Sequence record: PP180004
Length of the DNA stretch: 54,557 bases
Direction: 5' to 3' (one strand)
Origin: Escherichia phage mEp044
Shown: positions 9,562 to 51,407 of the stretch, in pieces
Layout: each line of letters opens with the position of its first letter
How positions within the stretch are numbered: position 1 is the first letter of the stretch
Made by a program: the position numbers and the translations under genes
The notes under the pieces: generated by a model
What the model saw: the letters and a program-made list of their open reading frames with translations, nothing else
Told to the model about the DNA's origin: nothing
Database searches by the model: none

Positions 9562-9595
9562 TCGCTTCGCAGCGACACCGGATTTTTAAAGAGCT
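9562..9595 (-). promoter_or_regulatory. candidate nutR-like site: boxA-like GCTCTTTAAAAAT plus hairpin TCGCT-GCGA-AGCGA on the minus strand
   Basis: boxA-like match and adjacent short stem-loop in the leader of the minus-strand operon. Confidence 0.4.
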
Positions 9596-9633: not shown

Positions 9634-9735
9634 CCTTGCATCATTGCAACTATGGCCTTACCTTGTCTGTAAGTTTACAGAATGGCGTTAACAGATCAAG
9701 GATTGAAAATTACATTTTGTGACTTGCATCAAAAT
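9634..9735. promoter_or_regulatory. immunity-region operator/promoter zone: repeated TTGCATCA half-sites (9636-9649 as TTGCA-N4-TGCAA; 9726-9733), palindrome CTGTAA-GT-TTACAG (9666-9679)
   Basis: repeats read in the 305-bp divergent region between the Cro-position gene and cI. Confidence 0.4.
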
Positions 9736-9758
9736 TTTTTCGGTTATAGGGTAGCGAT

Positions 9759-10436: not shown

Positions 10437-10529
10437 GCCTGAAAAACACCAAAACGTAAACAGAAAACGTGTTTTATCATTTAAATATCAATGACATATA
10501 AAATATTTTAAAAAAGTATACAAAATGGA

Positions 10530-10599: not shown

Positions 10600-10637
10600 T
10601 GCTCTTTAACAATCTGGTCAGCCGCTGGAAGTGCGGC
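10600..10637 (+). promoter_or_regulatory. candidate nutL-like site: boxA TGCTCTTTAACAA (10600-10612) plus boxB-like hairpin GCCGC-TGGAAGT-GCGGC (10621-10637)
   Basis: boxA matches the rrn/lambdoid boxA consensus; hairpin follows 8 nt later, upstream of the N-like gene. Confidence 0.55.
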
Positions 10638-14373: not shown

Positions 14374-14472
14374 CATCGTGATTGCGATCACATAGATATA
14401 CATTTTGTGTTGTGATCGCGTATCCGTTTTGTAAACTGAAATCAAAAGGTTTACGGTACGGAGGAAAACAAG

Positions 14473-17937: not shown

Positions 17938-18096
17938 AATTTACAAAATGGCGTCATTGCGTGATGCTGATCACATAATGGCGCTTTTCACCTTGTTCTG
18001 ACGTATCCATTTTGTATACTTCAAACAAGCAAAATGCTCTTTAAAAATCCGGCAGCGCTGAAATGCGTAGAAATCACCTGAAAAGGAGAGAGCATT

Positions 18097-23426: not shown

Positions 23427-23442
23427 TGTGATCTGTATCACA
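23427..23442. promoter_or_regulatory. perfect CRP-type palindrome TGTGA-N6-TCACA, adjacent to a TTTACGAAATGG motif
   Basis: tgtgatctgtatcaca read directly, upstream of the 23522 ORF. Confidence 0.35.
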
Positions 23443-36962: not shown

Positions 36963-37439
36963 ATGTCTCAGACTTGTGATAAAGGTTCGTTCTTAGGCCG
37001 CGACGTTGCCGTATTTTACGCTATCGCTTGCCCTAATGCGAAACCTAATGACGAAGCATATAAAGCGTTAGGCATGATGCGTGGCAAATCTCTTTCCGTA
37101 GAATGGGAAACCGCAGACGCCACCGCTGATAAATCGGCAGACTATACAAAAGAATCACTGGTTACTTACAAATCTGTTGCCTTCTCAGGTGACGGCGTAT
37201 CCCGCACCGAAGAAATCCACAACCAGAAGGCACTTAAACGCCACGTTATTAACCCTGGCGAAACAACTGGTGCGCAGCCTTACGTCTGGCTTAAACTCGT
37301 TTCCCCGCTCGACGTAACAGAAGGCCCGTTCCTTTGCACCTCCTTTAAAGAAGAAGATCCGCACGACGATGTATCAACATGGTCAATTGAGTGCGAAAGC
37401 GCTGGCAAGGTCACAGTAGGTGACGTTCCGTCAGTGTAA
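36963..37439 (+). CDS. major tail protein
   Basis: 158 aa; followed by a terminator and the chaperone and tape-measure genes. Confidence 0.6.
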   Translation: MSQTCDKGSFLGRDVAVFYAIACPNAKPNDEAYKALGMMRGKSLSVEWETADATADKSADYTKESLVTYKSVAFSGDGVSRTEEIHNQKALKRHVINPGETTGAQPYVWLKLVSPLDVTEGPFLCTSFKEEDPHDDVSTWSIECESAGKVTVGDVPSV

Positions 37440-37456
37440 CAGTAAATATTAACATC

Positions 37457-37481
37457 GGGGCCATTTGGCCCCTTTATTTTT
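37457..37481 (+). terminator. rho-independent terminator after the major tail gene
   Basis: hairpin ggggcc-attt-ggcccc followed by a T-rich run. Confidence 0.65.
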
Positions 37482-37484
37482 GGG

Positions 37485-38174
37485 GTGATAGTTATGATCC
37501 ATGTTCGAACCGGACAATTTTCGGCTGTAGTCGATGGCAGGCGGTATGTGTTTAATCCCTGCTTTGCTGCAATGGCTAAGATCGGCAGTGACAGGGAATT
37601 AGTTGAATACTTCGTAACTGTTCACGGTGGCAAATACCCACAGCGTTTGCCAGCGGATCCAGACCTCCGCAATCGCATTATGGCGCGTTGTTATGGTGAG
37701 TTAGTGCAAACGTCCATACACGTCCTGAAATGTTGCTCAGAGGACGAAATAGGCCCGTTATTGGGCGAATGTAGATTTACTCCTTCGGGGAAGTTGATAC
37801 TAAAACCTGGGCTGATGCCTACCAGTGACGTTATCACACTTGCGCAACACTGCATGTATCACGGTTTAATTGGTGACGGACCAGATGAGGACACTGGCGA
37901 GGAGCAGGAAGGCGACTATAAACAGACGTTTGACATCCTTGAATACGTTTACTCCGCCGTTGCTCACCTGGGATTGTCTGAATCTGAAGCATGGGGCATG
38001 ACAATGACCGGATACAGGGCCGCTGTACGCGCTAAAACGCCACCAGACGAAAGAAACGAGAAACGTAAGCCAAACGTTCAGATAAATAAACGTGATTATG
38101 ATGAGCAAATGGAGGCCGCTAAAAGGGTGCTGGAATTAATGAAAAAACGCGAGCAAGAAAAAGCCCGGAATTAA
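37485..38174 (+). CDS. tail assembly chaperone candidate
   Basis: 229 aa; position between major tail and tape measure; acidic middle and basic C-terminus. Confidence 0.45.
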   Translation: MIVMIHVRTGQFSAVVDGRRYVFNPCFAAMAKIGSDRELVEYFVTVHGGKYPQRLPADPDLRNRIMARCYGELVQTSIHVLKCCSEDEIGPLLGECRFTPSGKLILKPGLMPTSDVITLAQHCMYHGLIGDGPDEDTGEEQEGDYKQTFDILEYVYSAVAHLGLSESEAWGMTMTGYRAAVRAKTPPDERNEKRKPNVQINKRDYDEQMEAAKRVLELMKKREQEKARN

Positions 38175-38200
38175 CCGGGCCTTTATCTTTATTTGTATGC
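38163..38200. terminator. bidirectional terminator shared by the chaperone gene and antisense cassette 1
   Basis: hairpin gcccgg-aattaa-ccgggc flanked by T-runs on both strands. Confidence 0.5.
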
Positions 38201-38491
38201 TGCAAATCTGCATCTTGCCTCATCCAGGTCGTGAATATCGTACACGTTATCGTATAGGTAAGTTGCAACCTGTGATTTCTGTACGTCAGTTGCGTTTGGG
38301 TACTCCATGTTAACGAAAGTCAATGCATCAACGTAGTTCTTAAACATTTTTTTGTTAACGCACAGTGCGTAAATCAATACAACAGGCCAGCAAATCAGCG
38401 CACCAAAGAATGCCAATAGCATATTAAGATGTTTTTTCTGAGCCACAACCATAGTTGCGATGAATCCTACGAAGCAAATTACAAGTTCCAT
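38189..38491 (-). CDS. antisense cassette 1: 100-aa membrane protein (two TM helices)
   Basis: ORF with AGGAGGTG RBS; reverse orientation inside the tail module. Confidence 0.5.
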   Translation of the reverse strand: MELVICFVGFIATMVVAQKKHLNMLLAFFGALICWPVVLIYALCVNKKMFKNYVDALTFVNMEYPNATDVQKSQVATYLYDNVYDIHDLDEARCRFAAYK

Positions 38492-38501
38492 GATACACCT
38501 C

Positions 38502-38609
38502 CTAATTACGTTTATCTTCGGTTGTCATTGCCAGCACTAGCACAGCCATCACATTAAATGCTAACCATGCCGTAATATATACATCTATAACTGTTTTGAT
38601 TGTGTCCAT
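38502..38609 (-). CDS. antisense cassette 1: 35-aa single-TM peptide (MDTIKTVIDVYITAWLAFNVMAVLVLAMTTEDKRN)
   Basis: manual translation. Confidence 0.3.
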   Translation of the reverse strand: MDTIKTVIDVYITAWLAFNVMAVLVLAMTTEDKRN

Positions 38610-38624
38610 TTGCCTGCCCAGCTT

Positions 38625-38710
38625 ATTTCTTGTTTTTAAGTGCTTTCAGCATTTCTTCGATAAAGTCGGCGTAGTGCTCATGCTCGTTGGGTCGGTAGTA
38701 GTTTTTCATT
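38625..38710 (-). CDS. antisense cassette 1: 28-aa peptide (MKNYYRPNEHEHYADFIEEMLKALKNKK)
   Basis: manual translation; GAGGA RBS. Confidence 0.3.
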
Positions 38711-38865
38711 TTCTTATCCTCTTTTGCTTCCTCCGGTTAATCCGGTCTTCTGAATCCCTTTACTCTATCCCTTTCCTTTAGCCTCTTTATACAAAATGTA
38801 TTCGTTGAAGTGAAGCCATTTTGTATAAAATAGAGATCAGGATCACACTTTTACGAGGTTAAATC

Positions 38866-41214
38866 ATGTCCACCAGTTTAGGTACAATTTATTACGAAGT
38901 TGATGCAAAAACTGGTCAACTTCTAGTCGCTCAGCGACAGGCGGACCAGGCTTTTGACAGTATCGAGCGTGGCGCAAAACGCGCTGACCGCCAGGTAAAC
39001 ACGCTTAAGACTTCAATCAAAGCACTATCCAGGGTCATTCATCTGTTGCTTGCTGCGGAGGCTGTACGCCAGTTTATTGACATGGCGGAACAAGCAAAAA
39101 TGCTTCGCGTAAAAATCAAATTGCTTACAGGTGAAGCGGAGGCCACGGAACGTGTTTTCAATAGACTGAAAGAAATATCAAAAGAAACAGGCCAAAGCCT
39201 CAAGGATACTGGCGATCTGTGGCAAGGTCTTGCTATATCGCTAAAAAACACATCCGCTACGGAAGGCCAGGTGCTTAACCTGGTTAGCACGCTGCAAAAA
39301 CTCGGCAACCTGGGCGGCGTGTCTGCGGAACAACTATCAAACTCCATGCGTCAGTTCCGCCAGGCGATTGATGCTGGCGTGTTGCAGGCTGAAGAATTTA
39401 ACTCAATACGTGACAACACACCAACAATCATACAGGAAATGGCCCGCCAAATGGGATTGTCAATGGGGCAGTTCCGCGCTGAAATGCTGGACGGCAAGAT
39501 CACTGCTGAAAGGATGCTCAACGCGATCCAGGCCGCCACGCAGGAAACAAACGAGAAGTTTGCGCAGTTGCCGCGCACATCCGGCATGGCCTTCAACGAG
39601 CTTAAAGTTGAGGTGATGGGACTTGTCGAACAGTTAGACGATCTTTTCGGCATATCAGATGGCGTTGTGTCAGCAATAGACTTAATCACTGGTGGCGTTG
39701 AGGGATTAGGTAAAGGCGCAAAATTCGCCGCAACATGCTTCAATACACTAAAAACGGCTGGCAGCGAATTTATCGATATGTTTGATGATGTGGCTGTTAA
39801 GGCTGGAGAGGTGGCGGAAGAGATTATTAGGATGGTAACGCCAATCAAGGCGCTAATGGATGGCTACAAATGGATGAAGGAGATTATTGACAAACGCAAG
39901 GAAGAGCTAAACAGCAATAACGAGAAGAAATTTGGCCCCACCATTGGCAAATTCATGACGTTTAAGAATGACATCGAAAAAGCGACTGCCGCTTATGATG
40001 AGTTCATGCAGAAACAGGGGGAGGCTGACGACGGCAAGATCACCGGATTCGATCAGCCAGTTGGCAAACCGAAAAAAGGTAAAAAAGGCAAAAAAGACAA
40101 GAAATCTGAAGCTGATCGGCTTGGTGATGAAGGTGTAAATGTCTCCGACCAGTACAACAAAGACGCCGCCGCTATGCGTAAAGCACTGGAGAACGGCAAG
40201 GCCATTGACGCTGCGTTTGCTCAGGGCAAAATAACCCTCCTTGAGTACAAGGCAGCGCAAAAGGGGATAGGCAAGGAACTGAAGGACGAATTGGCCCAAA
40301 TCCCGGTGGAGGAATTGCAAGACAAATGGGCGCACATAGTAAGCCCGATGGATCAGCTTAAGGGCGAAATCGACCCAATCAAACAGGCGCAAAATGAATG
40401 GGCAGTAAGAAAGCAAATGTTATTAGACCTGGGAGCTACAGAGGCGCAACAGAGACAGGCGCAGTTAGAATATGAACAACAGATCCGCGATCTGAAGTGG
40501 GAACAATGGCAGGCGCAAAGCGACACAAACGGCCTGATCGGTGCTTGTGTCAGTGGCCTAAAAGGTGGCATGGGCAATGCGCTTACTGGCCTGTTGAACG
40601 GTACTCAATCATTAAGCGAGGTTTTCGCCAACCTGGGAAGCAGTATACTCAACACCGTAGGCAATAAACTTTCTGAAATAGCCGCTAACTGGATAGCAGA
40701 TCAATTAATGATGGAAACGCAAAGCAAGGCTACCCAGGCAAGTACAACTGCTGGCGCTGTGGCGGCGCAGGGCGAGATTGCTGCGGCTGCGGCCCCGGCA
40801 GCGGCTGCGACGGCTGCGTCAACTGGTGGTAGCTGGGCTGCGGCTGGCGCTGCGGCTCTTTCTGCGATCATGTCGCTGGCGACGTCAATTTTTGGCGGCG
40901 GGCGTTATAATGGTGGTTCTGTGAATGGTGGTAGTCTGTATCGCGTAGGGGAACACGGAATACCGGAGCTATTCCAGACGAGCAACGGGCGTCAGTACAT
41001 GATCCCTGGGGAAAATGGCAGGGTTATTCCTGGCCGCGATCTTTTCAGCGGTGGCGGCATTAACATGCCTGTTAACATTACAGTTCAGACCACAAACGGG
41101 TTTGGCGACGAAGACGGTCGCAGACTTGAACAGACTATGGAGCGCGTAGCAATGAAGATGATGGCAAGGGAATCACAACGACCTGGAGGAATGTTGCAAC
41201 CGCGCCGCAAATAA
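38866..41214 (+). CDS. tail tape measure protein
   Basis: 782 aa; long helical protein with Ala/Gly-rich C-terminal segment, in the canonical position. Confidence 0.85.
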   Translation: MSTSLGTIYYEVDAKTGQLLVAQRQADQAFDSIERGAKRADRQVNTLKTSIKALSRVIHLLLAAEAVRQFIDMAEQAKMLRVKIKLLTGEAEATERVFNRLKEISKETGQSLKDTGDLWQGLAISLKNTSATEGQVLNLVSTLQKLGNLGGVSAEQLSNSMRQFRQAIDAGVLQAEEFNSIRDNTPTIIQEMARQMGLSMGQFRAEMLDGKITAERMLNAIQAATQETNEKFAQLPRTSGMAFNELKVEVMGLVEQLDDLFGISDGVVSAIDLITGGVEGLGKGAKFAATCFNTLKTAGSEFIDMFDDVAVKAGEVAEEIIRMVTPIKALMDGYKWMKEIIDKRKEELNSNNEKKFGPTIGKFMTFKNDIEKATAAYDEFMQKQGEADDGKITGFDQPVGKPKKGKKGKKDKKSEADRLGDEGVNVSDQYNKDAAAMRKALENGKAIDAAFAQGKITLLEYKAAQKGIGKELKDELAQIPVEELQDKWAHIVSPMDQLKGEIDPIKQAQNEWAVRKQMLLDLGATEAQQRQAQLEYEQQIRDLKWEQWQAQSDTNGLIGACVSGLKGGMGNALTGLLNGTQSLSEVFANLGSSILNTVGNKLSEIAANWIADQLMMETQSKATQASTTAGAVAAQGEIAAAAAPAAAATAASTGGSWAAAGAAALSAIMSLATSIFGGGRYNGGSVNGGSLYRVGEHGIPELFQTSNGRQYMIPGENGRVIPGRDLFSGGGINMPVNITVQTTNGFGDEDGRRLEQTMERVAMKMMARESQRPGGMLQPRRK

Positions 41215-41221
41215 ACAAAAA

Positions 41222-41251
41222 CCCCGGTACAATGCCGGGGTTATCTTTATT
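41222..41251. terminator. bidirectional terminator after the tape measure gene
   Basis: hairpin ccccgg-tacaat-gccgggg with T-runs on both strands. Confidence 0.6.
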
Positions 41252-41429
41252 CAATTTCATCATTCTTAAATTCGCCGCTTGCATAAAGCTGTAATGCTCT
41301 TATCAGTTCGTCAGCTTGCTTTTTGTTTATTACAATCATCTCGCAGTCGCTAACGATCCATAATCTTCCATCATCTTCAACACTAAGATCAATCCTTCTG
41401 CATTCTTCAGTCTCGTGAATAATCATCAT
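41247..41429 (-). CDS. antisense cassette 2: 60-aa acidic protein
   Basis: ORF, reverse orientation inside the tail module. Confidence 0.4.
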   Translation of the reverse strand: MMIIHETEECRRIDLSVEDDGRLWIVSDCEMIVINKKQADELIRALQLYASGEFKNDEIE

Positions 41430-41467
41430 AAACCTTCATTATGTTATTAATTTACTGAATAAATTTA

Positions 41468-41635
41468 CTAAAATCTTGTATATCCTCTCTCAATTTTCCC
41501 TCCGTGTACACTTCTGGCAAATACCGCGTCAGTATACCTGAAAAATGGACATGTATATGTATCCCCTTTGCTATCCATATATTTTAGCACCCATGCCATG
41601 CGTTTTACGTTGCTTTTGTTTGCCTGATTTTTCAT
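41468..41635 (-). CDS. antisense cassette 2: 55-aa basic protein
   Basis: ORF 41468-41668 trimmed to ATG 41635 preceded by GGAGG. Confidence 0.4.
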   Translation of the reverse strand: MKNQANKSNVKRMAWVLKYMDSKGDTYTCPFFRYTDAVFARSVHGGKIERGYTRF

Positions 41636-41654
41636 TTTTATTTTCCTCCGTAAA

Positions 41655-41747
41655 TCACAACCTGCCATTTCTTGCTATGTAGCTGCGAGCAAACATTACC
41701 TGCCAGATGTTCCAGATCTCCCGCCAGGTGAATTTATCGTCATCCAT
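41655..41747 (-). CDS. antisense cassette 2: 30-aa Trp-rich peptide (MDDDKFTWREIWNIWQVMFARSYIARNGRL)
   Basis: manual translation; GAGGTGA RBS. Confidence 0.3.
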   Translation of the reverse strand: MDDDKFTWREIWNIWQVMFARSYIARNGRL

Positions 41748-41755
41748 ATTTCACC

Positions 41756-42010
41756 TCATTTATGCGCCCCTTTTACGCCACAGTGGCGGTTGTATTCCAG
41801 ATGGTCAATAATTAACCACATCTTTAAATCTTCGCTGAATAACCGCCAATCGGGGTTGATGTCAAATTTATAGCCGTAGCCATCGCGTAATTTTTTGGGG
41901 TTGGCCTCTTTTTTCAGGAAAGAATTTAATAAAGCCTTGCCTTTTTTGATGATCCGTTCCTGTGCGTTTTTCTGTGCTTTCAGGTTTTTGCCAATCGCCA
42001 CCAATTTCAT
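41756..42010 (-). CDS. antisense cassette 2: 84-aa lysine-rich protein
   Basis: ORF preceded by GGGGTGAG. Confidence 0.45.
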   Translation of the reverse strand: MKLVAIGKNLKAQKNAQERIIKKGKALLNSFLKKEANPKKLRDGYGYKFDINPDWRLFSEDLKMWLIIDHLEYNRHCGVKGAHK

Positions 42011-42030
42011 AACTCACCCCACGCAATCAA

Positions 42031-42186
42031 TCAGTTGACCACTTTCAGGAAGAAATCACGGTATTCATCTTCTTTTGCATTCATCATGAATTGACCGTAT
42101 TTGAATGCATCATCAAAACCCTTCACAATCGCAACTTCCACCTGTTCGAATGCTTTGTTTAGCATTACCACTACATAGCGTTCCAT
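42031..42186 (-). CDS. antisense cassette 2: 51-aa acidic protein (paralog of 43713-43868)
   Basis: ORF 42031-42375 trimmed to ATG 42186 preceded by AAGGGGGCC. Confidence 0.4.
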   Translation of the reverse strand: MERYVVVMLNKAFEQVEVAIVKGFDDAFKYGQFMMNAKEDEYRDFFLKVVN

Positions 42187-42358
42187 ATTGGCCCCCTTTG
42201 TTGGTACTGCTTTCTCTTCTTGCTTTCTGTATACATCTTGTTGCGTCCTGTGTGAAGCCATTTCGTAAACTGGGTATAATTCTTGTGACGAAGTTATCAT
42301 TTTTCGCGTAGAAGCGCGTAAAGATGTATGCAATATGTAACTTATGATGGGGGAAATC

Positions 42359-42712
42359 ATGCCTGAAGTTTTCAAATGGACGCCGCAAAGAAGCTACAGC
42401 GTAAACACTGAACCAAACGTGTCCGTCGTTAAACTTGGTGACGGTTATGAGCAGCGCCAGGCGAAAGGGATCAACACGTTACTTGATACTTATACCCTGG
42501 TTTTCAAAGGAAGTAGTGCAGGATGCGGTGCAGCCGGAAATGTCGCGCTACAGGTTGACGCATTTTTAAGGGCGCGCGGCGCGGTCGAGGCGTTTTACTG
42601 GACTCCATCGACCGACGGGGTGCAAAGGCTTTTCGTTTGTCGTAGCTGGAGTATGACCAAAGACGGGCCTGTTTGCACGCTAAACGCAACGTTTGAACAA
42701 GTTGTTGGCTAA
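42359..42712 (+). CDS. M: minor tail protein M
   Basis: ORF 42344-42712; resembles lambda gpM (GDGYEQR ... FYWTP ... FEQVV). Confidence 0.8.
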   Translation: MPEVFKWTPQRSYSVNTEPNVSVVKLGDGYEQRQAKGINTLLDTYTLVFKGSSAGCGAAGNVALQVDAFLRARGAVEAFYWTPSTDGVQRLFVCRSWSMTKDGPVCTLNATFEQVVG

Positions 42713-42912
42713 TGGTGGGGGTTGTTATGTACGGTTTTTGTGTGGTTGATAAGACTGAATCTTTTACATTATTTGCAGACTATGAGATCAACGACCTTGC
42801 TGTAAGAGCTGACAATGGCGATACATGGTATTTGCATGATATGGGTGACGGGTATGTCGGGTGCAGATCCAGGGAGGGTAAGGAGGTTTTATTTTTGGTT
42901 GATGGCGTATAA
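42712..42912 (+). CDS. hypothetical protein
   Basis: 66-aa ORF. Confidence 0.4.
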   Translation: MVGVVMYGFCVVDKTESFTLFADYEINDLAVRADNGDTWYLHDMGDGYVGCRSREGKEVLFLVDGV

Positions 42913-42918
42913 AAACAA

Positions 42919-42941
42919 CCCCGCGCGAAGCGGGGTTTTTC
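42919..42941 (+). terminator. rho-independent terminator
   Basis: hairpin ccccgc-gcgaa-gcgggg followed by TTTTT. Confidence 0.6.
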
Positions 42942-42944
42942 TTG

Positions 42945-43082
42945 TCAGTAGTGGATATACAGCAAGCTCATTGGGTGAGCGTGCGCCATGTTGTTTGCTA
43001 TTGCCGCCCAGTCCCAATCAGCAGCGTGAATGCCAAATACTATCAGTCCCATTATTATTAGCGCCAAAACTTCTATTTTCAT
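42945..43082 (-). CDS. antisense cassette 3: 45-aa membrane peptide (MKIEVLALIIMGLIVFGIHAADWDWAAIANNMAHAHPMSLLYIHY)
   Basis: manual translation; AGGTGA RBS. Confidence 0.35.
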   Translation of the reverse strand: MKIEVLALIIMGLIVFGIHAADWDWAAIANNMAHAHPMSLLYIHY

Positions 43083-43092
43083 AATCTGTCAC

Positions 43093-43341
43093 CTATAAGT
43101 TATCACGCAGATAATTAACGCCTTTATCAGTGACGAATGAATGATTGACCTGGTTTTCGTCCGTCATGATTATGAATAGCTTTTCCTGTAGGTATTTCGC
43201 TTTCGGGTACAGCGTTAAACAGACCTGGTACAGTATCCCGCGCTCAATCAGCAAATCAATAAATTCGTGCTCATGATAACCGACGAGGCGGGCGGCCTGT
43301 TTTAACGTGTACACATAATCGCCGTGATTGCGCCGCCCCAT
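43093..43341 (-). CDS. antisense cassette 3: 82-aa putative HTH protein
   Basis: ORF; AlpA/MerR-like HTH pattern LKQAARLVGYHEHEFIDLLIERGIL. Confidence 0.45.
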   Translation of the reverse strand: MGRRNHGDYVYTLKQAARLVGYHEHEFIDLLIERGILYQVCLTLYPKAKYLQEKLFIIMTDENQVNHSFVTDKGVNYLRDNL

Positions 43342-43349
43342 GTTGCCGC

Positions 43350-43700
43350 CTATTTATCGAATGCAGACAAATTGTCGATACAGAAGTCTTTAGCAGCCTT
43401 TTCGTATTCGCGTTTTGCTTCTGGATTGTCAGCCGGGAAACCTTTTGCGTGTATTTCACCAGGGCAAGATTGATCCATAGAGTCTGCAAAGTTAACATTG
43501 GCGTTGAAGTTAACATCTTTCGGGTTCATCTCTTCCGCCTTATCCGGTACTTGGACCGGAGTAATATCAAAATCACGAGCGTTAGACCAACAGCGAAGTA
43601 ATTCGCGACCTTCATCACGCGCCTCAGTATATGTGTCAAATAGGCCCATGCGTTCCCATTCACATTTATCAGTCCAAACGTCTAATCTGTATTTTTGCAT
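43350..43700 (-). CDS. antisense cassette 3: 116-aa hypothetical protein
   Basis: ORF preceded by GAGAGG. Confidence 0.45.
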   Translation of the reverse strand: MQKYRLDVWTDKCEWERMGLFDTYTEARDEGRELLRCWSNARDFDITPVQVPDKAEEMNPKDVNFNANVNFADSMDQSCPGEIHAKGFPADNPEAKREYEKAAKDFCIDNLSAFDK

Positions 43701-43712
43701 TTTGTTAACCTC

Positions 43713-43868
43713 TCATTTGACAGGTTCTATCCTGTACCCCAAAACGCGGTCATCCTCAGCAAGTAAAAGCGCGTCAGTAAGTGCCTCGCCTTCATCTTTA
43801 TACAGGGCCACAGTCATTTCCCTGCCATCATCAAGGAACACCGTCAACCTCCACACCTTGTCAGCCAT
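43713..43868 (-). CDS. antisense cassette 3: 51-aa acidic protein (paralog of 42031-42186)
   Basis: ORF 43713-43943 trimmed to ATG 43868 preceded by GGAGGTG. Confidence 0.4.
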   Translation of the reverse strand: MADKVWRLTVFLDDGREMTVALYKDEGEALTDALLLAEDDRVLGYRIEPVK

Positions 43869-43995
43869 ATAACACCTCCGCGCCATTTTGTTAACCATGC
43901 TTCCTTTTGAGTACAATATACATATTGTAAAAAGCGCTATCAACCGTTTTGGTATGATTTAGCGTGACGTCGATCACAAATTACAAGGTGATAAA

Positions 43996-44700
43996 ATGCG
44001 CAGCATACCTACAGAAATGATTATTGATTCCGTGGATGCCGGAGTCGGCGCGGTAATTGACTTGTTTGAATTAGACCTCACGCCCCTGGGTGGCGAGGTT
44101 ATCCGCTTCCATTCCGGCGCGAATGGCTATTACGGCCCGGTTATCTGGAAGGGAGTGGCTTACAACAGCTATCCAATCGAGGCAACTGGCTTCGAAATGA
44201 AAAACGAGGGTGTTTACTCACGCCCCCAAATGGTAGTAGCCAACATTGGCGGGCTAATCACCGGGATGAATAACGATTTCAACGACCTGCGAGGAATGAA
44301 GGTTACGCGCCGCCAGGTGGAAGTAAAATACCTGGACGCCGTTAATTTCCCCAACGGCAACCCGGATGCAGATCCATCTATTGAGGCTGTGTCTTTTTAC
44401 GTCGTTGAAGCGATGAGCGAAGAAACAGCCGACCAGGTGCAATATGAACTGTCAACGCCAATTGATGCTGATAAGGCGGTTATCCCGGGGCGCACAATTC
44501 TCGCTGACGTTTGCCAGTGGCAATATCGCGGCGACGGTTGCGGATACAGCGGCGGCCCTGTAGCTACAGATAAAGACGAATCGACCAGCGATCCAAAACT
44601 GGACAGATGCAGCCACCGCTTGAGCGGTTGTCGTTTACGTTTCCCGCGTCCAAATCCGTTACCAATTTCCTGTTTCCCTGGTTCCAGCAAGGTAGGTTAA
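43996..44700 (+). CDS. L: minor tail protein L
   Basis: 234 aa; strong resemblance to lambda gpL (LDAVNF.NGN..ADP ... GRT.LAD.C.W.YRGD.CGYSG ... C..RLSGC). Confidence 0.9.
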   Translation: MRSIPTEMIIDSVDAGVGAVIDLFELDLTPLGGEVIRFHSGANGYYGPVIWKGVAYNSYPIEATGFEMKNEGVYSRPQMVVANIGGLITGMNNDFNDLRGMKVTRRQVEVKYLDAVNFPNGNPDADPSIEAVSFYVVEAMSEETADQVQYELSTPIDADKAVIPGRTILADVCQWQYRGDGCGYSGGPVATDKDESTSDPKLDRCSHRLSGCRLRFPRPNPLPISCFPGSSKVG

Positions 44701-44702
44701 TC

Positions 44703-45434
44703 ATGGTAATGGAAGACAAAATGTTGCGTTATGCCGCCGCGCATCCGTTTGAAGAAGTATGCGGGCTGGTGATAGATAACGATTATTTTTACCCATGCTT
44801 AAACGTGTCTGAAACGCCGCACAACAGCTTTAAAATCTCGCCTGACGATTATATCAAAGCTGACGAATTAGGCGTTATAACCGCCGTTTTTCACTCCCAC
44901 ACTGACAATTCATTGGTATTGTCGGCGCGGGATCGACAACAGCAGGTTATTTCCGGGCTGCCGTGGTTTTTGTGTTCAGGTGGTAGGGTAAGAAAATTCC
45001 GCCCAGTGGCACACCTGTTAGGCCGTAAATTTGAGCACGGGAAAACAGACTGCTATTCGCTTTTCCGTGACGCCTATCACCTTTGCGGCGTGGATCTGCC
45101 TGACTTTGAGCGCCTTGATGGGTGGTGGCTGCGTGGGGAAAACCTGTATTTAAAAAACTTGCCTCTAAACGGGTTTTATCAGGTTGACGCGCAAAGCATT
45201 CAGCCAGGTGATGTGATTATCCGCCAGCCGTTTAAAGGCGCTGACCCATGTCACGCGATGATTTACCTGGGCGACAATACTGTTTTGCATCATGACAATG
45301 CCGGACTGTTAAGCCGCCGCGAGCAAATGCGGCCCGCTTATGTTCGGCAGACCAACTCAATATGGAGATCTGACAAATGCTCAAGTTTAGATTTACGGGC
45401 AATCTTCGAAGATATTACGGCAAGGTGTGTTTAA
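44703..45434 (+). CDS. K: tail assembly protein K (MPN/JAB plus NlpC/P60-like domains)
   Basis: ORF 44607-45434 with start at ATG 44703; strong resemblance to lambda gpK (RKFRPVAHLLGRKFEHGKTDCYSLFRDAYHLCG). Confidence 0.9.
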   Translation: MVMEDKMLRYAAAHPFEEVCGLVIDNDYFYPCLNVSETPHNSFKISPDDYIKADELGVITAVFHSHTDNSLVLSARDRQQQVISGLPWFLCSGGRVRKFRPVAHLLGRKFEHGKTDCYSLFRDAYHLCGVDLPDFERLDGWWLRGENLYLKNLPLNGFYQVDAQSIQPGDVIIRQPFKGADPCHAMIYLGDNTVLHHDNAGLLSRREQMRPAYVRQTNSIWRSDKCSSLDLRAIFEDITARCV

Positions 45435-45920: not shown

Positions 45921-48900
45921 ATGAGTAGCGGCGGCGGCAAAGCCAAAACACCAACATTATTAAACGATAACCTGTATCATAAACAGTTTTATCGTGTTTT
46001 AGACATTCTCAGCGAGGGGCCGATATACGGCCCGGCAAACCAGAATGCGCCATTAAACAACGTAATGCTTAATGACACGCCTATCACTGACGCAAACGGA
46101 AACACATCAATTCCTGGGATTAGTATAGCCTGGCGAAACGGCACGGCTGACCAATCGCCGATTAATGGTTTTAATGCCATCGAATCAACCGTTATTGTCA
46201 ACGCAAAGGTAACTCACGACACACCAATAATAAGGACTGTTTCAGATCCAAACGTTACCCGCGTAAGGTTAAATCTTGGCGTTGATGCTCTTGTTCAGTC
46301 AGATGATGAGGGCAATCAATATAATACATCCGTTATGTTGATGGTTGATGTTAAACCGTCAACATCTTCTACGTGGTCGCTGGTTAAAGATATACACATT
46401 GGTCCCGGTAAACAAAGCGGCGAATATCTGGAAGCTCACATTATCAAAGCGCCGGATGAAAAGCCGTTTGATATTCGCGTTCGTCGCGCAACGGCAGACA
46501 GCAAAAGCGATCTTCTTCGTAATGATACGCGGTGGAGTAGCTACAGCGAAATAATCGACGATAATTTATCTTATCCTCATACCGCTGTTGCTGGCGCGGT
46601 AATTGACCATGACCAGTATACTGATACTCCTACCCGTACATATCACCTGCGCGGGCTGATTGTTGATGTTCCTGATAACTACGACCCGGAAACGCGCACG
46701 TACTCAGGTTTATGGCTTGGTGGCTTTAAAAAAGCGTATACCAATAACCCTGCATGGCTTTTCCGGTATCTGGTGAAAAATGAACGCTTCGGGCTTGCCC
46801 GCCACGCTGGTTACGTTGATGTTGACGACGGAGCATTATATACGCTTTCTCAATACTGCGACCAGTTGGTAAACGACGGTTACGGCGGCTTTGAACCACG
46901 CATGACGCTTAATGCTTACATCACGGAGCAAATGAGCGCACGAGACTTGCTGGATAACATTGCAGGTATGTTCCGTGGTATCGCGTTATGGGACGGGCAA
47001 CGCCTTACTGTGATGATTGATGCGCCACAGGATCCAATTGCCACCATTACAAATGCAAACGTCGTTGATGGCGCGTTTACTCGTTCAAGTATCGCCCGTG
47101 CAGAATCTTACAACGCCGTGATTGTGTCATGGACTGACCCGGAAAACGGTTGGGAGCAATCAAAAGAATACGTGGCAGATGATGAACTGATCGCCCGCGA
47201 TGGTTATAACGAAACCACTTTAGAGGCGTTCGGTTGTACGTCACGCGGGCAGGCGTACCGCGCTGGCAAGTGGCTGATAGAAACAGCAAAACGCGAACCA
47301 TCAAAATTCACGTTTAAAATGGCCCGTGACGCAATTCACTTCACCCCGGGTGATATTATCGAGATACTCGACAATAACCGCGCAGGCGCTCGTTTAGGCG
47401 GTCGTATCGTGGCTAATAATGGCAAGGTGATAACGGTCGATAAGGTTGATTCTGAATATATCGCGGCTGGTGACACTATCAGTTTGCTTGATAGTGATGG
47501 CAAGTTTAAAAAACACCAGATCACCGGAGTTAACGGAAACAACATCACCCTTGCAACCGCCCCCGCATGGATTCGTAACGGGACCGTATTCGCTGTGTCA
47601 ACTGAAGCGGCAAGACCTGTTCTGTGTCGAATTATCAGCGTAGCGGAAACCGAAAATAACAGCGTGTACACCATCGAGGCTGCACAGCATGATCCGCACA
47701 AGCAGGCAGTAGTTGATGAAGGTGCAATCTTCGAGGTAAACAACGACACGCTTAATCACTTCCGCGTGCCGAACATTGAAAACCTGAAGGTGTTAAATGT
47801 TGGTTCTGAAACTGTTCAATGTCGCGCTACATGGGAAACACATACGACAACGCATCGCCTGACCTTTGAGATCCGCGTATATAATGCAGACGGTCGCGTG
47901 GTGGCAAGTTATGAAACAACGAATTACCGTTATGAATTTTATGGCCTCGAAGCAGGCAGCTACACGCTTGGTATTCGCGGTCGTAATGACACTGGCATGA
48001 AGGGCGCTGAAAGTATTGTGGATCTGGTGATTGGTGCACCATTGGCCCCTGTCGGCGTTAATTGGGTTCCGGGCGTTTTCCAGGCAACAGTATACCCGAT
48101 CAGCAAAACAACCCTGACCACTGATACGGCATATGAGTTCTACTTCTCAGGTGAAAACCAGATCACAGATCCATCAAAAGTAACCACGCTGGCGCAGTTC
48201 ACCGGGCGCGGCTACCAATGGACTTTTGGCGGCATGAACACGGGTCATACCTATTACGTTTATGTGCGCACGCGTAATGCCTTTGGTGTGTCAGACTTCG
48301 TTGAAGCATCAGGCGAACCGACTGAAAACTTCGATGAAATCAGCGACTACGTCACAAAAGACGTGATTAATTCAGAACAGTTTAAGGGGATGATTAGCGA
48401 CATTAAAGATCTTGGCGACCGCGCCGACCTTATCGAAAGCGCTACAAATGACCTTAAAACTGCTACCGACAACCTCAAAACTGCAACTGATAACCTGACA
48501 AACATCACTGACGATTTGAGGGTTGACACGGACAACCTGACAAACATCACTGACGAATTGAGGACTGATACGGACGGCCTAATCACAGAAACAGGGGCCA
48601 TAAAAGCTGATACGGACACACTGAAAAAAGAGACGGAAGATCTTTATAAAAAGGTTGGGGAAAACGCCGATGATATTGGACAGCATGAGGCAAGAATAGA
48701 TTCGCTGGAGGTATCTAGCGAAAAAGTTGGCAGTGAACTAGCACAAGCAAAAGCAAGCCTGCAAAATGCGTCATTGGCGCTTATCAATAACTCACTTGCA
48801 CAGACTAACACGCGCGTAACTCTTACCGCCCAATACAAGAAAGGTAGGACAGAGACGAGGGCTGAAATTGACCGCATTGACAACGTTATTGCTGAAGAGA

Positions 48901-51407
48901 AAAAGGCAACGGCGGAATCACTGGAAACCATCACGGCAGAAATGAACACGATGGATTCTAACCTTAAAGGTCAGATCTCAAGCGTGGAACGTGCAGTGGC
49001 TGACGAGGCCAGCGCACGCGCAGAAGCCATTAACGGTGTGAACGCATCAATAAGCAATCTAGACAAGAAAACAGACGCCAGCATCAATAGACTTGATCAA
49101 GCTATTGCAGACGAAACGACCGCCCGCACACAGGCAGTCAGTGACGTTAACGCGAGTATCTCATCGCTAGACAAGAAAACTGGCGCCAGCGTGAAACGCT
49201 TGGATCAAGCGATTGCAGACGAAACCAGCGCAAGAACTGAAGCTATCAGCGGAGTGAACGCATCAATTTCCACGCTTGATAGCAAGGTAACAAGCAATGT
49301 AACGCGCATAGATAAAGCTATTGCAGACGAAACGAAGGCACGCACTGACGCAATCAGCGGCGTTAATGCAAGTATTAGCACACTCGAAGGCAACACCAAT
49401 TCAGAAGTGAAACGCCTTGATCAAGCAATAGCTGACGAGACTAGTGCCCGCACACAGGCTATCAGCGGTGTAAATGCTTCAATAAGCAATCTTGAAAGCA
49501 AAACCGACGCCAGCGTTTCCCGTCTTGATAAAGCAATAGCAGATGAAACGCAGGCAAGAAGTGCTGCAATAACAGATGTTAAAGCTGATTTAACAACACT
49601 CGAAAACAGCACAAACGCCAGCGTCAAACGTCTTGATCAGGCAATTGCCGACGAATCAAGTGCCCGCGCTGAAGCAATATCAGGCATCAATGCAGAGATT
49701 GGCAACATTGAAAATAATGTTGACAAAAACAGCGATGATATAAATCAGACAAAAGCAAGCCTGCAAAACGCGTCTATCGCGCTTATTAACAACTCAATCG
49801 CTCAAACAAACACGCGTGTTACGCTTACGGCCCAATACAAGAAAGGCCGCAAAGAAACCAACGCGCAAATTGACCGTATTGACAATGTTATCGCTGAAGA
49901 GAAAAAGGCTACAGCGGAAGCGGTTAGCGTGGTAAAAGCATCGATCACGGATCTTGATAAGAAGACTGACGCGAGCGTTTCCCGTCTCGACAAGGCTATC
50001 GCAGACGAAACAAGCGCACGCAGCGAGGCTATTAGCGGAGTAAATGCCTCAGTGTCAGCGCTAGACAAGAAAACGGATTCAAACATAAGCCGTCTTGATA
50101 AAGCCATTGCAGATGAGACAAGCGCAAGAACTGAAGCTATCAGTGGAGTGAATGCAAGTATTATCACTCTTGAAAGCAACACTGAATCTGAAGTTAGCAG
50201 GCTGGATCAGGCAATTGCCGACGAATCAAGTGCCCGCACCCAGGCTATAAGCGGAGTGAACGCATCAATTTCCACGCTTGATAGTAAGGTGACAAGTAAC
50301 GTAACCCGTATTGACAAGGCAATTGCAGACGAAACGAACGCCCGCACTGACGCGATAAGTAGCCTTAATTCATCGCTTACCAGTACGATTAACTCGAAGG
50401 TGTCTGAGGTATCAACGGCGCTTTCTACGCATGAAGCATCAAGCGCAGAAAAATTTAGCCAGATCTCAGCGTCTTTCGATTCTGTAAATTCAAGTATTAC
50501 AGAATGGTCGCAGGCTATGGCAACGGCTGACGAGGCATTATCAAGCAAAATTGATCAGCTAACAGTAACCGTTAACGGGAACACGACAGCAATAGAGACA
50601 ACATCGAATGCGCTAACCGATTTCAAGGGTAACGTTGATGCGTCATATTCCATCAAGCTGGCAACAGATAACAACGGCATGAAGTACGCTACAGGTATGT
50701 CGCTTGGCCTGACTGGTAACGGCACAAACTTTCAATCGCAGTGTATTTTCCTTGTTGACCGCTTCGTATTAATGACCGCAGCAAACGGCACATATACAAC
50801 GCCTTTCTATGTATCTAATGGCGCTATGTATGTGAAAGAAGCGTTTATTAAAAACGCATCAATAGGAGAAGCTAAAATTGCAAACGCCGCAATCACATCA
50901 GCCAAAATTGCACAGCAGATACAGTCAACTGAATTTGTTAAAGACTCAAAAGGTTGGATGATTAACAAAGATGGGTGGGCGGAGTTCAATAGCGTTACGG
51001 TGAGGGGGACTGTGTATGCTACGGACGGTAAGTTCTCCGGTTCGCTTGAGGCGAAAACCTTTATCGGTGATGTTGCGAATATGTATACAGGAGGTGACGT
51101 TAGTAGATTAAATGATGGTGTGCTAGAAAAAACAATCACATACAACGATACATCAAGTGCAGCACATAGTAGACACATCTGCGTTATGGCAAACGTCAAA
51201 GGTTTTGGTGGCTGCACGATAAACATTGGAGGTTCAGAAAAAAACCTTGCTATGAATGGAGATGAGCGTCTTGTCATGCATTCAGCGGCAATAACTACCA
51301 AGAGCGTTACAGTTAAAATTAAGGTATCCGCTCAAAATAGCAAGGGTGCATATATAAATTCGCCGACCGTCATTGTGTCGCGCGGTTCTGGTTCATTCTC
51401 AGGATAA
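45921..51407 (+). CDS. J: tail tip/host specificity protein J with an internal coiled-coil repeat expansion
   Basis: 1828 aa; N-terminal ~1000 aa resemble lambda gpJ (ISEGPIYGP, WSSYSEIID, FGCTSRGQAYRAGKWLIETAK); repeats at about aa 930-1500. Confidence 0.9.
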   Translation: MSSGGGKAKTPTLLNDNLYHKQFYRVLDILSEGPIYGPANQNAPLNNVMLNDTPITDANGNTSIPGISIAWRNGTADQSPINGFNAIESTVIVNAKVTHDTPIIRTVSDPNVTRVRLNLGVDALVQSDDEGNQYNTSVMLMVDVKPSTSSTWSLVKDIHIGPGKQSGEYLEAHIIKAPDEKPFDIRVRRATADSKSDLLRNDTRWSSYSEIIDDNLSYPHTAVAGAVIDHDQYTDTPTRTYHLRGLIVDVPDNYDPETRTYSGLWLGGFKKAYTNNPAWLFRYLVKNERFGLARHAGYVDVDDGALYTLSQYCDQLVNDGYGGFEPRMTLNAYITEQMSARDLLDNIAGMFRGIALWDGQRLTVMIDAPQDPIATITNANVVDGAFTRSSIARAESYNAVIVSWTDPENGWEQSKEYVADDELIARDGYNETTLEAFGCTSRGQAYRAGKWLIETAKREPSKFTFKMARDAIHFTPGDIIEILDNNRAGARLGGRIVANNGKVITVDKVDSEYIAAGDTISLLDSDGKFKKHQITGVNGNNITLATAPAWIRNGTVFAVSTEAARPVLCRIISVAETENNSVYTIEAAQHDPHKQAVVDEGAIFEVNNDTLNHFRVPNIENLKVLNVGSETVQCRATWETHTTTHRLTFEIRVYNADGRVVASYETTNYRYEFYGLEAGSYTLGIRGRNDTGMKGAESIVDLVIGAPLAPVGVNWVPGVFQATVYPISKTTLTTDTAYEFYFSGENQITDPSKVTTLAQFTGRGYQWTFGGMNTGHTYYVYVRTRNAFGVSDFVEASGEPTENFDEISDYVTKDVINSEQFKGMISDIKDLGDRADLIESATNDLKTATDNLKTATDNLTNITDDLRVDTDNLTNITDELRTDTDGLITETGAIKADTDTLKKETEDLYKKVGENADDIGQHEARIDSLEVSSEKVGSELAQAKASLQNASLALINNSLAQTNTRVTLTAQYKKGRTETRAEIDRIDNVIAEEKKATAESLETITAEMNTMDSNLKGQISSVERAVADEASARAEAINGVNASISNLDKKTDASINRLDQAIADETTARTQAVSDVNASISSLDKKTGASVKRLDQAIADETSARTEAISGVNASISTLDSKVTSNVTRIDKAIADETKARTDAISGVNASISTLEGNTNSEVKRLDQAIADETSARTQAISGVNASISNLESKTDASVSRLDKAIADETQARSAAITDVKADLTTLENSTNASVKRLDQAIADESSARAEAISGINAEIGNIENNVDKNSDDINQTKASLQNASIALINNSIAQTNTRVTLTAQYKKGRKETNAQIDRIDNVIAEEKKATAEAVSVVKASITDLDKKTDASVSRLDKAIADETSARSEAISGVNASVSALDKKTDSNISRLDKAIADETSARTEAISGVNASIITLESNTESEVSRLDQAIADESSARTQAISGVNASISTLDSKVTSNVTRIDKAIADETNARTDAISSLNSSLTSTINSKVSEVSTALSTHEASSAEKFSQISASFDSVNSSITEWSQAMATADEALSSKIDQLTVTVNGNTTAIETTSNALTDFKGNVDASYSIKLATDNNGMKYATGMSLGLTGNGTNFQSQCIFLVDRFVLMTAANGTYTTPFYVSNGAMYVKEAFIKNASIGEAKIANAAITSAKIAQQIQSTEFVKDSKGWMINKDGWAEFNSVTVRGTVYATDGKFSGSLEAKTFIGDVANMYTGGDVSRLNDGVLEKTITYNDTSSAAHSRHICVMANVKGFGGCTINIGGSEKNLAMNGDERLVMHSAAITTKSVTVKIKVSAQNSKGAYINSPTVIVSRGSGSFSG
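48741..50400 (+). repeat. in-frame coding tandem repeats inside J: about eleven 108-bp (36-aa) units in two blocks, each block headed by a ~180-bp duplicated segment (48741 and 49750)
   Basis: repeated peptide LDQAIADETSARTEAISGVNASIS...; attgcagacgaaac recurs every 108-109 bp. Confidence 0.8.

Follow-up and report, generated by a model that had tools for sequence, protein, structure and literature searches.

Three reverse-oriented, moron-type gene cassettes in the tail module of Escherichia phage mEp044 and their probable link to the phage's own circuit

Escherichia phage mEp044 (sequence record PP180004) was analysed as a stretch of 54,557 nucleotides, referred to here as the window. Its plus-strand tail genes are broken up by minus-strand open reading frames (ORFs) at 38189-38709, 41247-42186 and 42945-43868, an arrangement described in an earlier sequence-based annotation (the original prediction) and borne out by the ORF list. 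These three groups of small genes, called cassettes 1, 2 and 3, are probably autonomous, reverse-oriented units of the moron type that sit at three insertion hotspots and are wired into the regulatory circuit of the phage, and the products proposed for them below are the most likely ones. Cassette 1, with three genes, lies between the chaperone gene and that of the tape measure protein (TMP). Cassette 2, with five genes, lies between TMP and gpM, and cassette 3, with four, between gpM, together with a 66-amino-acid (aa) ORF that follows it, and gpL.

From 37400 to 44800, the DNA is 86-95% identical to that of six coliphages, mEp010, mEp554, mEp021, MagusPhagus, mEp515 and mEp013, and mEp044 is assigned to the mEp021 group (immunity I) of temperate E. 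coli phages. The six relatives are members of the Nus-dependent, non-lambdoid “mEp immunity I” group, for which structural genes, nut sites, the repressor (Rep021) and the N-like protein (Gp17) have been mapped (PMC11893012). Immunity-I phages are reported to be as common as lambdoid phages in human faeces; prophages of the mEp021 group are not induced by ultraviolet (UV) light, and Rep021 has no Ala-Gly cleavage site (PMC11893012). A Q-type antiterminator has been invoked for the group, and a Q-like gene is annotated in mEp021. The reverse genes of the tail module are not discussed in that work, which leaves the Rep021 operators and the cassette promoters undefined (PMC11893012).

Morons in tail operons, including a reverse moron, toxin-antitoxin pairs in prophages and KilAC proteins are all established, and the individual genes are annotated in GenBank and RefSeq. 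Three points go beyond existing descriptions: the ParE-like pair and the KilAC cassette, found almost universally and at fixed junctions of the tail module in a prevalent group of gut phages; the evidence that reverse cargo recurs at the TMP|gpM and gpM|gpL junctions of related tail modules, which marks these as hotspots; and a group-specific motif that links the cassettes to promoters of the immunity region.

Coding status and terminators of the cassettes

Every cassette ORF, read in its minus-strand frame, has a ratio of nonsynonymous to synonymous polymorphism (pN/pS) of 0.05-0.32, compared with 0.04-0.23 in the adjoining tail genes, as calculated across up to eight relatives. Because purifying selection is seen in all of them, the ORFs are considered to be genes, even those of 28 and 30 aa. 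Good ribosome-binding sites had been ascribed to the cassette genes in general; usable Shine-Dalgarno (SD) sequences precede most of the ORFs. The GC content is 0.393, 0.391 and 0.446 in cassettes 1, 2 and 3, respectively, versus 0.478-0.522 in the flanking tail genes. A membrane protein had been expected in each cassette. This agrees with cassette 1, which has transmembrane (TM)-like segments in its 35-aa and 100-aa products, and with the 45-aa product of cassette 3, but not with cassette 2, which contains no TM-like segment.

At the 3' end of each cassette is a GC-rich hairpin with T-runs on both strands. The hairpin that ends cassette 1 has a predicted energy of -19.5 kcal on the minus strand, where it is followed by TTTTTCTT, and of -15.1 kcal on the plus strand. 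Contrary to the original prediction, such terminators do not bracket the cassettes: each has a single bidirectional terminator, at its 3' end, and the 5' side contains no terminator but a promoter region. An Rfam scan of the region returned no known RNA family, and a scan of the cassette proteins against NCBIfam gave nothing useful.

Tail junctions in related phages and prophages

All six named phages have reverse genes at all three junctions. The contents differ from phage to phage, with cassette 3 nearly constant. The region is present in 35 of 5,426 complete E. coli genomes in RefSeq, always in the chromosome. Further loci were collected from IMG/VR through gpL, so that the cassettes themselves do not bias the sample, and divided into an ingroup (gpL 85-99% identical) and an outgroup (gpL 70-72% identical).

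In the ingroup, the chaperone|TMP gap measures 643-1278 bp and is always occupied, and TMP and gpM are 671-1554 bp apart. Of 43 loci with a measurable gpM|gpL gap, 42 have one of 1199-1894 bp and the other has one of 128 bp. This short-gap exception (L088, the same contig as L044) and the prophage of E. coli MS 21-1 are devoid of both cassette 3 and the 66-aa ORF. Both deletion variants keep the cassette 3 promoter and palindrome before gpL. In the MS 21-1 prophage (L008:6903-7028), this promoter region, with the motif, is fused to the first bases of the 66-aa ORF, and a TTGTTA repeat is found at both breakpoints, corresponding to about 42727 and 43886 of the window. Since the promoter of cassette 3 and the start of the 66-aa ORF are retained, the absence of the cassette is ascribed to a secondary deletion and not to a site that was never occupied.

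Of the outgroup loci that could be measured, 21 of 35 have a tight TMP|gpM junction (-4 to +8 bp) and 18 of 36 a gpM|gpL junction of 45 bp; in the others, inserts of 180-1300 bp stand at these two junctions. The H-M-L junctions of phage HK97 are tight as well. Because the junctions are mostly tight in the outgroup and HK97 but occupied in the ingroup, the cassettes are interpreted as insertions into a basic tail module of the lambda type, at recurrent hotspots; in the mEp021 lineage they have become fixed, with mosaic distal parts. This upholds the original prediction that they were inserted. The outgroup inserts are laid out alike, with a small plus-strand ORF after gpM followed by reverse cargo of 65-268 aa. 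At gpM|gpL, the reverse-oriented outgroup cargo (loci L124, L127, L128 and L133) includes a 154-aa aspartyl-protease-like protein and a 268-aa DUF6602/PD-(D/E)xK NucC-like nuclease (PADLOC, 2.7e-26). Alternative cargo in relatives includes HNH proteins, T5orf172 proteins with treble-clef zinc fingers, a protein like VasI of the type VI secretion system and lipoprotein-like proteins. More widely, TMP|gpM and gpM|gpL emerge as recurrent hotspots for reverse cargo in lambda-type tail modules.

A 12-mer shared by the cassettes and the immunity region

All three cassettes are preceded, in gene orientation, by a 12-mer of the form T[TA][TA]AC[AG]AAATGG: TATACAAAATGG at cassette 1, TTTACGAAATGG at cassette 2 and TTAACAAAATGG at cassette 3. 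The original prediction had reported a motif, TTTAC(A/G)AAATGG, before cassettes 2 and 3 and missed the copy before cassette 1. The motif is real: TTTACRAAATGG, at no more than one mismatch, has 12 matches in the window against 1.0 expected, a number reached in 0 of 100 shuffles. The copy at cassette 3 (43894-43883), however, has one mismatch to the form first described and lies downstream of the predicted promoter, in the 5' leader adjoining the SD.

The other sites are mostly intergenic and in the early region (5320, 9674, 10517, 14424-14435 on the minus strand, 17940, 18007-18018 on the minus strand, and 23446). The one at 9674 lies between a divergent helix-turn-helix (HTH) gene and the repressor gene, in a rep-upstream region (9674-9772) where three copies of the motif core are clustered. 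The site at 10517 comes just before a strong promoter, TTGACT-17-TATATT, that resembles PR and is found between the repressor gene and the N-like gene, and the sites at 17940 and 18018 adjoin nutR2. At the PR-like promoter and cassettes 1 and 2, counting from the first base of the motif, a -35-like hexamer (TTGACT, TTCACT and TTCACA, respectively) starts at 13 nt and a -10-like hexamer (TATATT, TATAAA and TATACA) at 36 nt. A TA-type -10 hexamer occurs at an offset of 35-37 in 6 of 11 motif sites, compared with a background of 5% (P = 6e-6). Because this promoter format is common to the PR-like early promoter and to cassettes 1 and 2, the timing of these two cassettes may follow the phage's own switch.

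Among ingroup loci, the exact degenerate motif is found at cassette 1 in 33 of 38, at cassette 2 in 32 of 41 and at cassette 3 in 37 of 41, and it is also conserved at all three positions in the named relatives. Since the ingroup loci contain 126 matches in 623 kb and the outgroup loci none in 502 kb, the 12-mer is regarded as a regulatory element specific to this phage group and not as a general promoter feature. It may represent the undefined operator, or another regulatory site, of the immunity-I phages. Head-to-head pairs of the motif are spaced by 2, 20, 30 and 59 bp, and most sites are not palindromic. Rep itself is lambda-CI-like over its full length. Deducing the operator from the HTH of Rep was tried and dropped, as the CI-like match is mostly in the C-terminal domain and silent on the operator.

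Further upstream are sites resembling those of CRP: TGTGATCCTGATCTCT at cassette 1 and TGATAACTTCGTCACA at cassette 2, both matching at 8 of 10 positions and placed comparably to the site at 23427. Their centres, by count, fall at about -60 to -70 relative to the putative start sites, and one CRP half-site is conserved in relatives. This arrangement suggests cAMP-CRP-dependent accessory promoters. The site at 23427-23442, TGTGATCTGTATCACA, is a perfect CRP consensus and lies 4 nt upstream of a motif copy (23446), which a TATATA -10 follows about 37 nt downstream.

Three boxA-like elements (GCTCTTTAA), each followed by a short hairpin, were also observed, at 9586-9594 (minus strand), 10601-10609 (plus strand) and 18036-18044 (plus strand). 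These are the counterparts of the nutL, nutR1 and nutR2 sites known from mEp021. Ahead of nutL and nutR2 stands an inverted copy of the motif, CCATTCTGTAAACTT and CCATTTTGTATACTT, respectively. When inverted, the motif can be read as the -10 of an opposite promoter, directed towards TMP, gpM and gpL or towards nutL and nutR2.

Cassette 2 and the candidate toxin-antitoxin pair

The second gene of cassette 2 encodes an 84-aa basic protein that matches the whole Pfam model PF24732 (ParE_like) with an E value of 1.6e-11 and 44.5 bits, against a cutoff of 24.4. Distant members of the family match only PF24732, and RefSeq and UniRef name the protein “ParE family toxin-like protein”. It is preceded, at a distance of 20 nt and in the same orientation, by the gene for a 51-aa acidic protein. 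The ParE-like gene is present in 42 of 42 gpL-anchored relatives in which the TMP|gpM gap could be measured, and the 51-aa gene stands upstream of it in all eight named phage or prophage relatives and in 40 of the 42 gpL-anchored loci. In minimal cassettes of 671-675 bp, the pair is retained alone. The two genes are considered a candidate toxin-antitoxin pair, in which the acidic partner would neutralize the basic ParE-like protein. No ParE-like gene of this family came up when species-representative genomes were scanned, and the family is confined to the mEp021 prophage group.

Cassettes 2 and 3 both open with a 51-aa acidic protein, as had been noted, with isoelectric points (pI) of 4.85 and 4.39. 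The suggestion that the two are paralogs did not hold up, as BLASTP gave no alignment at E<=100 and they fall in different PHROGs. A similarity of the 51-aa proteins to the N-domain of the 116-aa protein of cassette 3 was also considered, and BLASTP returned nothing meaningful. Many database entries give the cassette 2 protein as 68 aa; the longer start falls within or upstream of the predicted -10.

In the six named phages, the 51-, 84- and 30-aa genes of cassette 2 are constant and the distal part varies. The 30-aa ORF is conserved in all six, at 70-100%. The fourth gene was listed as 66 aa from 41668, but it most likely starts at 41635 and encodes 55 aa because a GGAGG SD precedes the ATG at 41635 and none precedes 41668; it is annotated at 168 nt in relatives and present in five of the six. 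In mEp021 (L002:4391-5725), mEp515 (L003:5697-6203) and mEp013 (L005:3683-4993), the distal part of the cassette was observed to hold genes of the homing-endonuclease type, namely HNH, and T5orf172 joined to treble-clef zinc fingers (DUF4379) and a CapR domain. Such genes could drive the exchange of cargo at the TMP|gpM junction.

The putative control region of cassette 2 consists of the CRP-like site (42299-42284), the 12-mer (42269-42258), a -35 TTCACA (42256-42251) and a -10 TATACA (42233-42228).

Cassette 3 and its KilAC protein

An HTH protein had been expected in the cassettes, and none was identified. The nearest candidate is the 82-aa product of the third gene of cassette 3, which matches PF03374 over residues 10-82 (E = 1.3e-6, 29.1 bits, cutoff 25.3) and is named “phage antirepressor KilAC domain-containing protein” in RefSeq. 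It consists of KilAC alone, with no N-terminal Ant, Bro-N or KilA-N domain. This is the most conserved of the cassette genes, with 93-100% identity in relatives and a pN/pS of 0.05.

The 116-aa protein encoded just upstream has a folded N-domain, predicted by AlphaFold2 at a local confidence (pLDDT) above 93 for residues 1-50 (ββαβ) and below 60 for the remainder. In the alignment of relatives, the C-terminal 45 residues are almost invariant and the N-domain varies in sequence, a pattern that would be expected of a tail that binds a conserved partner. The N-domain had no significant structure match in the PDB, and the protein had no family match in Pfam, PHROG, PADLOC or NCBIfam.

The most conserved stretch of cassette 3 is this predicted-disordered tail, SMDQSCPGEIHAKGFPADNPEAKREYEKAAKDFCIDNL (43350-43490), which loosely resembles RecA residues 276-306 (DNPETAKEIEKK). 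The resemblance is curious, as the phage group is not UV-inducible. A RecA match of the tail with E values of 1e-6 to 1e-12 was rejected as an artefact of PDB chains containing four to six fused RecA copies; against a single copy the score is 6.3 bits, which is statistically insignificant.

The -10 of the putative cassette 3 promoter sits in a perfect 18-bp palindrome, TACAATAT-ac-ATATTGTA (43912-43929), that is unique in the window and whose half-site is one base off the motif core. This tight palindromic format is found at cassette 3 only, with none in the immunity region. A LexA box was considered for the promoter and dismissed, as the palindrome reads ACAAT..ATTGT and not CTGT..ACAG.

Cassette 1

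The first gene of cassette 1, a 28-aa leader ORF, is kept in five of the six named relatives (82-100%), and the downstream cargo is swapped. The 35-aa and 100-aa genes co-occur and, among the six named phages, are shared only by mEp554; the 100-aa gene is present in a minority of IMG/VR relatives. No family match for the 100-aa protein was found in the Pfam, PHROG, PADLOC and NCBIfam scans. In the putative control region, the CRP-like half-site (38847-38832) is followed by the 12-mer (38827-38816), a -35 TTCACT (38814-38809) and a -10 TATAAA (38791-38786); together with the -10 region, the 12-mer makes up an inverted repeat of 18 nt.

Coordinates of the features

The features are collected in Table 1. 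No obvious frameshift partner of the G/GT type was seen in the ORF list for the DUF6246 gene at the chaperone position. Downstream of the module, the 1828-aa J-like tail fibre protein (45921-51407) contains a long central run of near-identical repeats of about 30-35 residues (…RLDQAIADETSARTEAISGVNASIS…).

Table 1. Positions of the cassette genes, putative control elements, terminators and neighbouring tail genes in the window
Feature	Position	Strand	Remarks
Chaperone-position DUF6246 protein, single, 229 aa	37485-38174	+	DUF6246 from RefSeq naming in relatives
Bidirectional intrinsic terminator, chaperone gene (+) / cassette 1 (-)	38163..38180	.	Hairpin GCCCGG-N6-CCGGGC
Cassette 1 gene 3, 100-aa protein, two TM-like segments	38189..38491	-	TM-like 1-19 and 21-39; AGGAGG SD, -11.5 kcal
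Cassette 1 gene 2, 35-aa single-TM peptide	38502..38609	-	TM-like segment 6-24
Cassette 1 gene 1, 28-aa leader ORF	38623..38709	-	Conserved promoter-proximal part; pN/pS 0.06
Cassette 1 control region	38786..38847	-	Putative promoter, CRP-like half-site, 12-mer
TMP	38866-41214	+	ORF list
Bidirectional terminator, TMP (+) / cassette 2 (-)	41220..41242	.	-16.8 and -15.3 kcal; T-runs on both strands
Cassette 2 gene 5, 60-aa acidic protein (pI 4.4)	41247..41429	-	Variable distal cargo; phrog_13627, unknown function; 2 of 6 named relatives
Cassette 2 gene 4, 55-aa basic protein	41468..41635	-	66 aa from 41668 in ORF list; GGAGG SD before ATG 41635
Cassette 2 gene 3, 30-aa ORF	41655..41747	-	Not membrane-like, no TM segment; pN/pS 0.09
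Cassette 2 gene 2, 84-aa basic protein (pI 9.91), candidate toxin	41756..42010	-	Pfam PF24732 ParE_like
Cassette 2 gene 1, 51-aa acidic protein (pI 4.85), candidate antitoxin	42031..42186	-	phrog_29810, unknown function; pN/pS 0.06
Cassette 2 control region	42228..42299	-	Putative promoter, CRP-like site, 12-mer
gpM	42344-42712	+	ORF list
66-aa ORF	42712..42912	+	ORF list; overlaps gpM stop codon; gone along with cassette 3 in deletion variants
Bidirectional terminator, 66-aa ORF (+) / cassette 3 (-)	42917..42937	.	GC-rich hairpin and T-runs on both strands
Cassette 3 gene 4, 45-aa peptide	42945..43082	-	N-terminal TM-like or signal-like segment; missing in MagusPhagus and in roughly one-third of relatives
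Cassette 3 gene 3, 82-aa stand-alone KilAC (antirepressor C-terminal) domain	43093..43341	-	PF03374; phrog_5689
Cassette 3 gene 2, 116-aa acidic protein	43350..43700	-	Folded variable N-domain and invariant C-terminal tail predicted disordered
Cassette 3 gene 1, 51-aa acidic protein (pI 4.39)	43713..43868	-	GGAGG SD; phrog_29559; 86-92% identity in relatives
Cassette 3 control region	43883..43943	-	Putative sigma-70-like promoter TTGATA-17-TATATT (43943-43915), 10/12 matches
gpL	43996-44700	+	ORF list

Proposed organization and alternative explanations

In the favoured explanation, each cassette would start in a control region of 110-160 bp adjoining the following tail gene and be read leftward, antisense to the late operon, from its own putative sigma-70-type promoter. 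Transcription would stop at the two-way hairpin directly after the preceding tail gene. During lytic growth, a Q-type antiterminator would let late transcription cross the three hairpins; without Q, the cassettes and the tail genes would be insulated from each other by the terminators. In the lineage, the promoter-proximal genes are fixed and the distal genes are exchanged, in some relatives along with genes of the homing-endonuclease type. Cassette 1 would produce small inner-membrane proteins of the HK97 gp15 kind that may act in entry exclusion, cassette 2 the toxin-antitoxin-like pair plus three small proteins, and cassette 3 the KilAC-domain protein, two acidic partners and a membrane peptide. 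With a 12-mer that is also found at the PR-like and repressor-gene promoters, the units seem to be under the phage's own circuit and not simply constitutive. Expression in the lysogen is a hypothesis, and in doubt given that the motif is shared with the PR-like promoter beside the repressor gene.

Several points weigh against this explanation. The promoters, start sites and timing of the cassettes are all deduced from sequence, and the control regions may serve the tail genes too, with the inverted motif read as a plus-strand -10. HK97 gp15 is the product of a single gene that is co-oriented with the tail operon, whereas cassette 1 is reversed and has three genes; its proteins gave no BLASTP alignment to gp15 and no match to Pfam YebO, and no sequence similarity to either is evident. 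Ten cassette proteins of the window were run against PADLOC, with no match at E<=0.1; of the toxin-antitoxin or anti-phage cargo originally proposed, a ParE_like pair stands as a candidate. The original prediction had also named conservation as core genes in all relatives as an outcome that would speak against accessory cargo. The promoter-proximal parts do behave as core genes of the lineage (the ParE-like gene at 42 of 42 loci, cassette 3 at 42 of 43), and this near-universal presence of the cassette 2 core and of cassette 3 fits genes needed by the phage as well as it fits cargo.

Four other explanations were weighed. The cassettes might be early lytic genes that stay off in the prophage and, upon infection or induction, are turned on along with PL and PR to serve host takeover or counter-defence, with the 12-mer as the operator of Rep021 or part of it. 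This is a possibility to be taken seriously, if clearly not the probable one. The offset of the motif from the -35 and the -10 is equal in the PR-like promoter (10517) and in cassettes 1 and 2, the motif core is repeated three times upstream of rep, and the motif is confined to a homoimmune phage group; the 18-bp palindrome over the cassette 3 -10, made of motif-like half-sites, has the usual format of a CI-type dimer site, and Rep is CI-like over its full length while its operators are left undefined (PMC11893012). However, the sites other than that of cassette 3 are non-palindromic, and the motif pairs are not spaced as would suit a simple dimer of the CI type. Activation is as compatible as repression with a site centred near -42, and it would be unusual for a toxin-antitoxin pair to be expressed in the lytic cycle alone. 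A more specific proposal, for cassette 3 alone, is that it is a second regulatory region like the immI of P22, whose KilAC protein and acidic partners act as an antirepressor of Rep021. P22 immI, with ant, likewise lies within the late region. The KilAC match above the Pfam cutoff, the strong conservation of the gene, the operator-like palindrome over the promoter and a prophage that shows no UV induction and whose repressor has no cleavage site (PMC11893012) are all in keeping with this, and if true, it would explain how such a prophage is induced. It is nevertheless rather unlikely, as only the 82-aa C-terminal domain is present, without an N-terminal Ant, Bro or KilA-N part, no Arc- or Mnt-like regulator was recognized in the Pfam, PHROG, PADLOC and NCBIfam scans, the promoter has no LexA box and two contigs, viable as phages or not, do without cassette 3 entirely.

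It is improbable that the control regions mainly serve the tail genes, with the units as by-products of a late operon segmented as terminator-promoter-terminator, the motif in its rightward internal promoters and the leftward ORFs of minor importance. The inverted motif does read as a -10-like element (TGTATAAA, TGTAAACT), a perfect TATAAT follows just after it upstream of gpM, a plus-strand promoter-like TTGTTA-18-TACAAT (43888-43917) faces gpL, and the deletion variant keeps exactly this region before gpL. Against this, purifying selection on the leftward ORFs is as strong as on the tail genes, the minus-strand promoters have better -35/-10 matches in a fixed geometry while the plus-strand -35 candidates are poor, and a Q-type antiterminator makes internal promoters unnecessary. 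That the ORFs are chance antisense frames in non-coding spacers might be thought from the several very short ones (28, 30, 35 and 45 aa) with no family match, but the low pN/pS throughout, the SDs, the PHROG families found for 7 of 10 cassette proteins tested and the two cassette ORFs that pass the curated Pfam cutoffs effectively refute it, and hardly any weight is given to it. A wider scheme would have the 12-mer as the site of the immunity-I repressor or another phage regulator, with PL, PR, the repressor promoter and the three cassettes as one dispersed regulon and cassette 3 as a P22-immI-like region that governs induction; such a scheme is unlikely. Autonomous, reverse-oriented moron-type units tied to the phage circuit are the probable explanation.

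Implications

The ParE-like pair, present in all members, and the KilAC cassette, present in nearly all, are concrete candidates for effects of these prophages on their hosts. The most useful by-product of the analysis is the motif, a specific candidate for the operator, or another regulatory site, that is so far undefined in the immunity-I group; it is also a warning not to assume that reverse cassettes in late operons are expressed in the lysogen. The hotspots at tail junctions should be useful for the mining of accessory and defence genes.

Comparison with known systems

Gene 15 of HK97, the first element to be named a moron, is flanked by the chaperone and TMP genes; its product, an exclusion protein of the membrane, blocks DNA entry (PMC3594210). 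Like cassette 1 with its predicted membrane proteins, it has its own terminator, a small inner-membrane product, DNA of lower GC content and the chaperone/TMP position (Juhala et al. 2000; Cumby et al. 2012). HK97 Gp23, annotated as a “reverse moron product” and encoded between tail genes I and J, resembles the cassettes in being a small reverse gene with its own terminator. It differs in that it is a single gene at another junction and has no shared promoter motif, whereas the cassettes are three multi-gene units with one shared element.

Cassette 2 resembles type II modules such as ParDE and RelBE in that a small acidic protein is encoded directly upstream of a small basic ParE_like protein and that the pair is co-inherited in nearly all relatives. 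Unlike the ParDE and RelBE antitoxins, the 51-aa partner matches no known antitoxin family, and the likeness is one of sequence and gene order. In P22, the immI region comprises mnt, arc and ant. It shares with cassette 3 an antirepressor-related gene in a separately controlled unit of the late region and an operator-like palindrome; cassette 3 differs in having only the C-terminal KilAC domain and no recognized regulators of the Arc/Mnt type.

The defence hotspots and morons of prophages, such as the P2 and P4 hotspots and Tab of JBD26, also hold diverse, exchanged accessory genes at fixed positions (PMC10884400). Unlike these, the cassettes lie inside the tail operon and point backwards, and the proteins of the window match no known defence family. 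Compared with morons as defined by Juhala and Hendrix, the cassettes consist of extra DNA that related phages lack at that position, though it is fixed within the mEp021 lineage, and that has a distinct base composition; as to a promoter and terminator of their own, the hairpins are clear on both strands, and the promoters are predicted with a conserved geometry.

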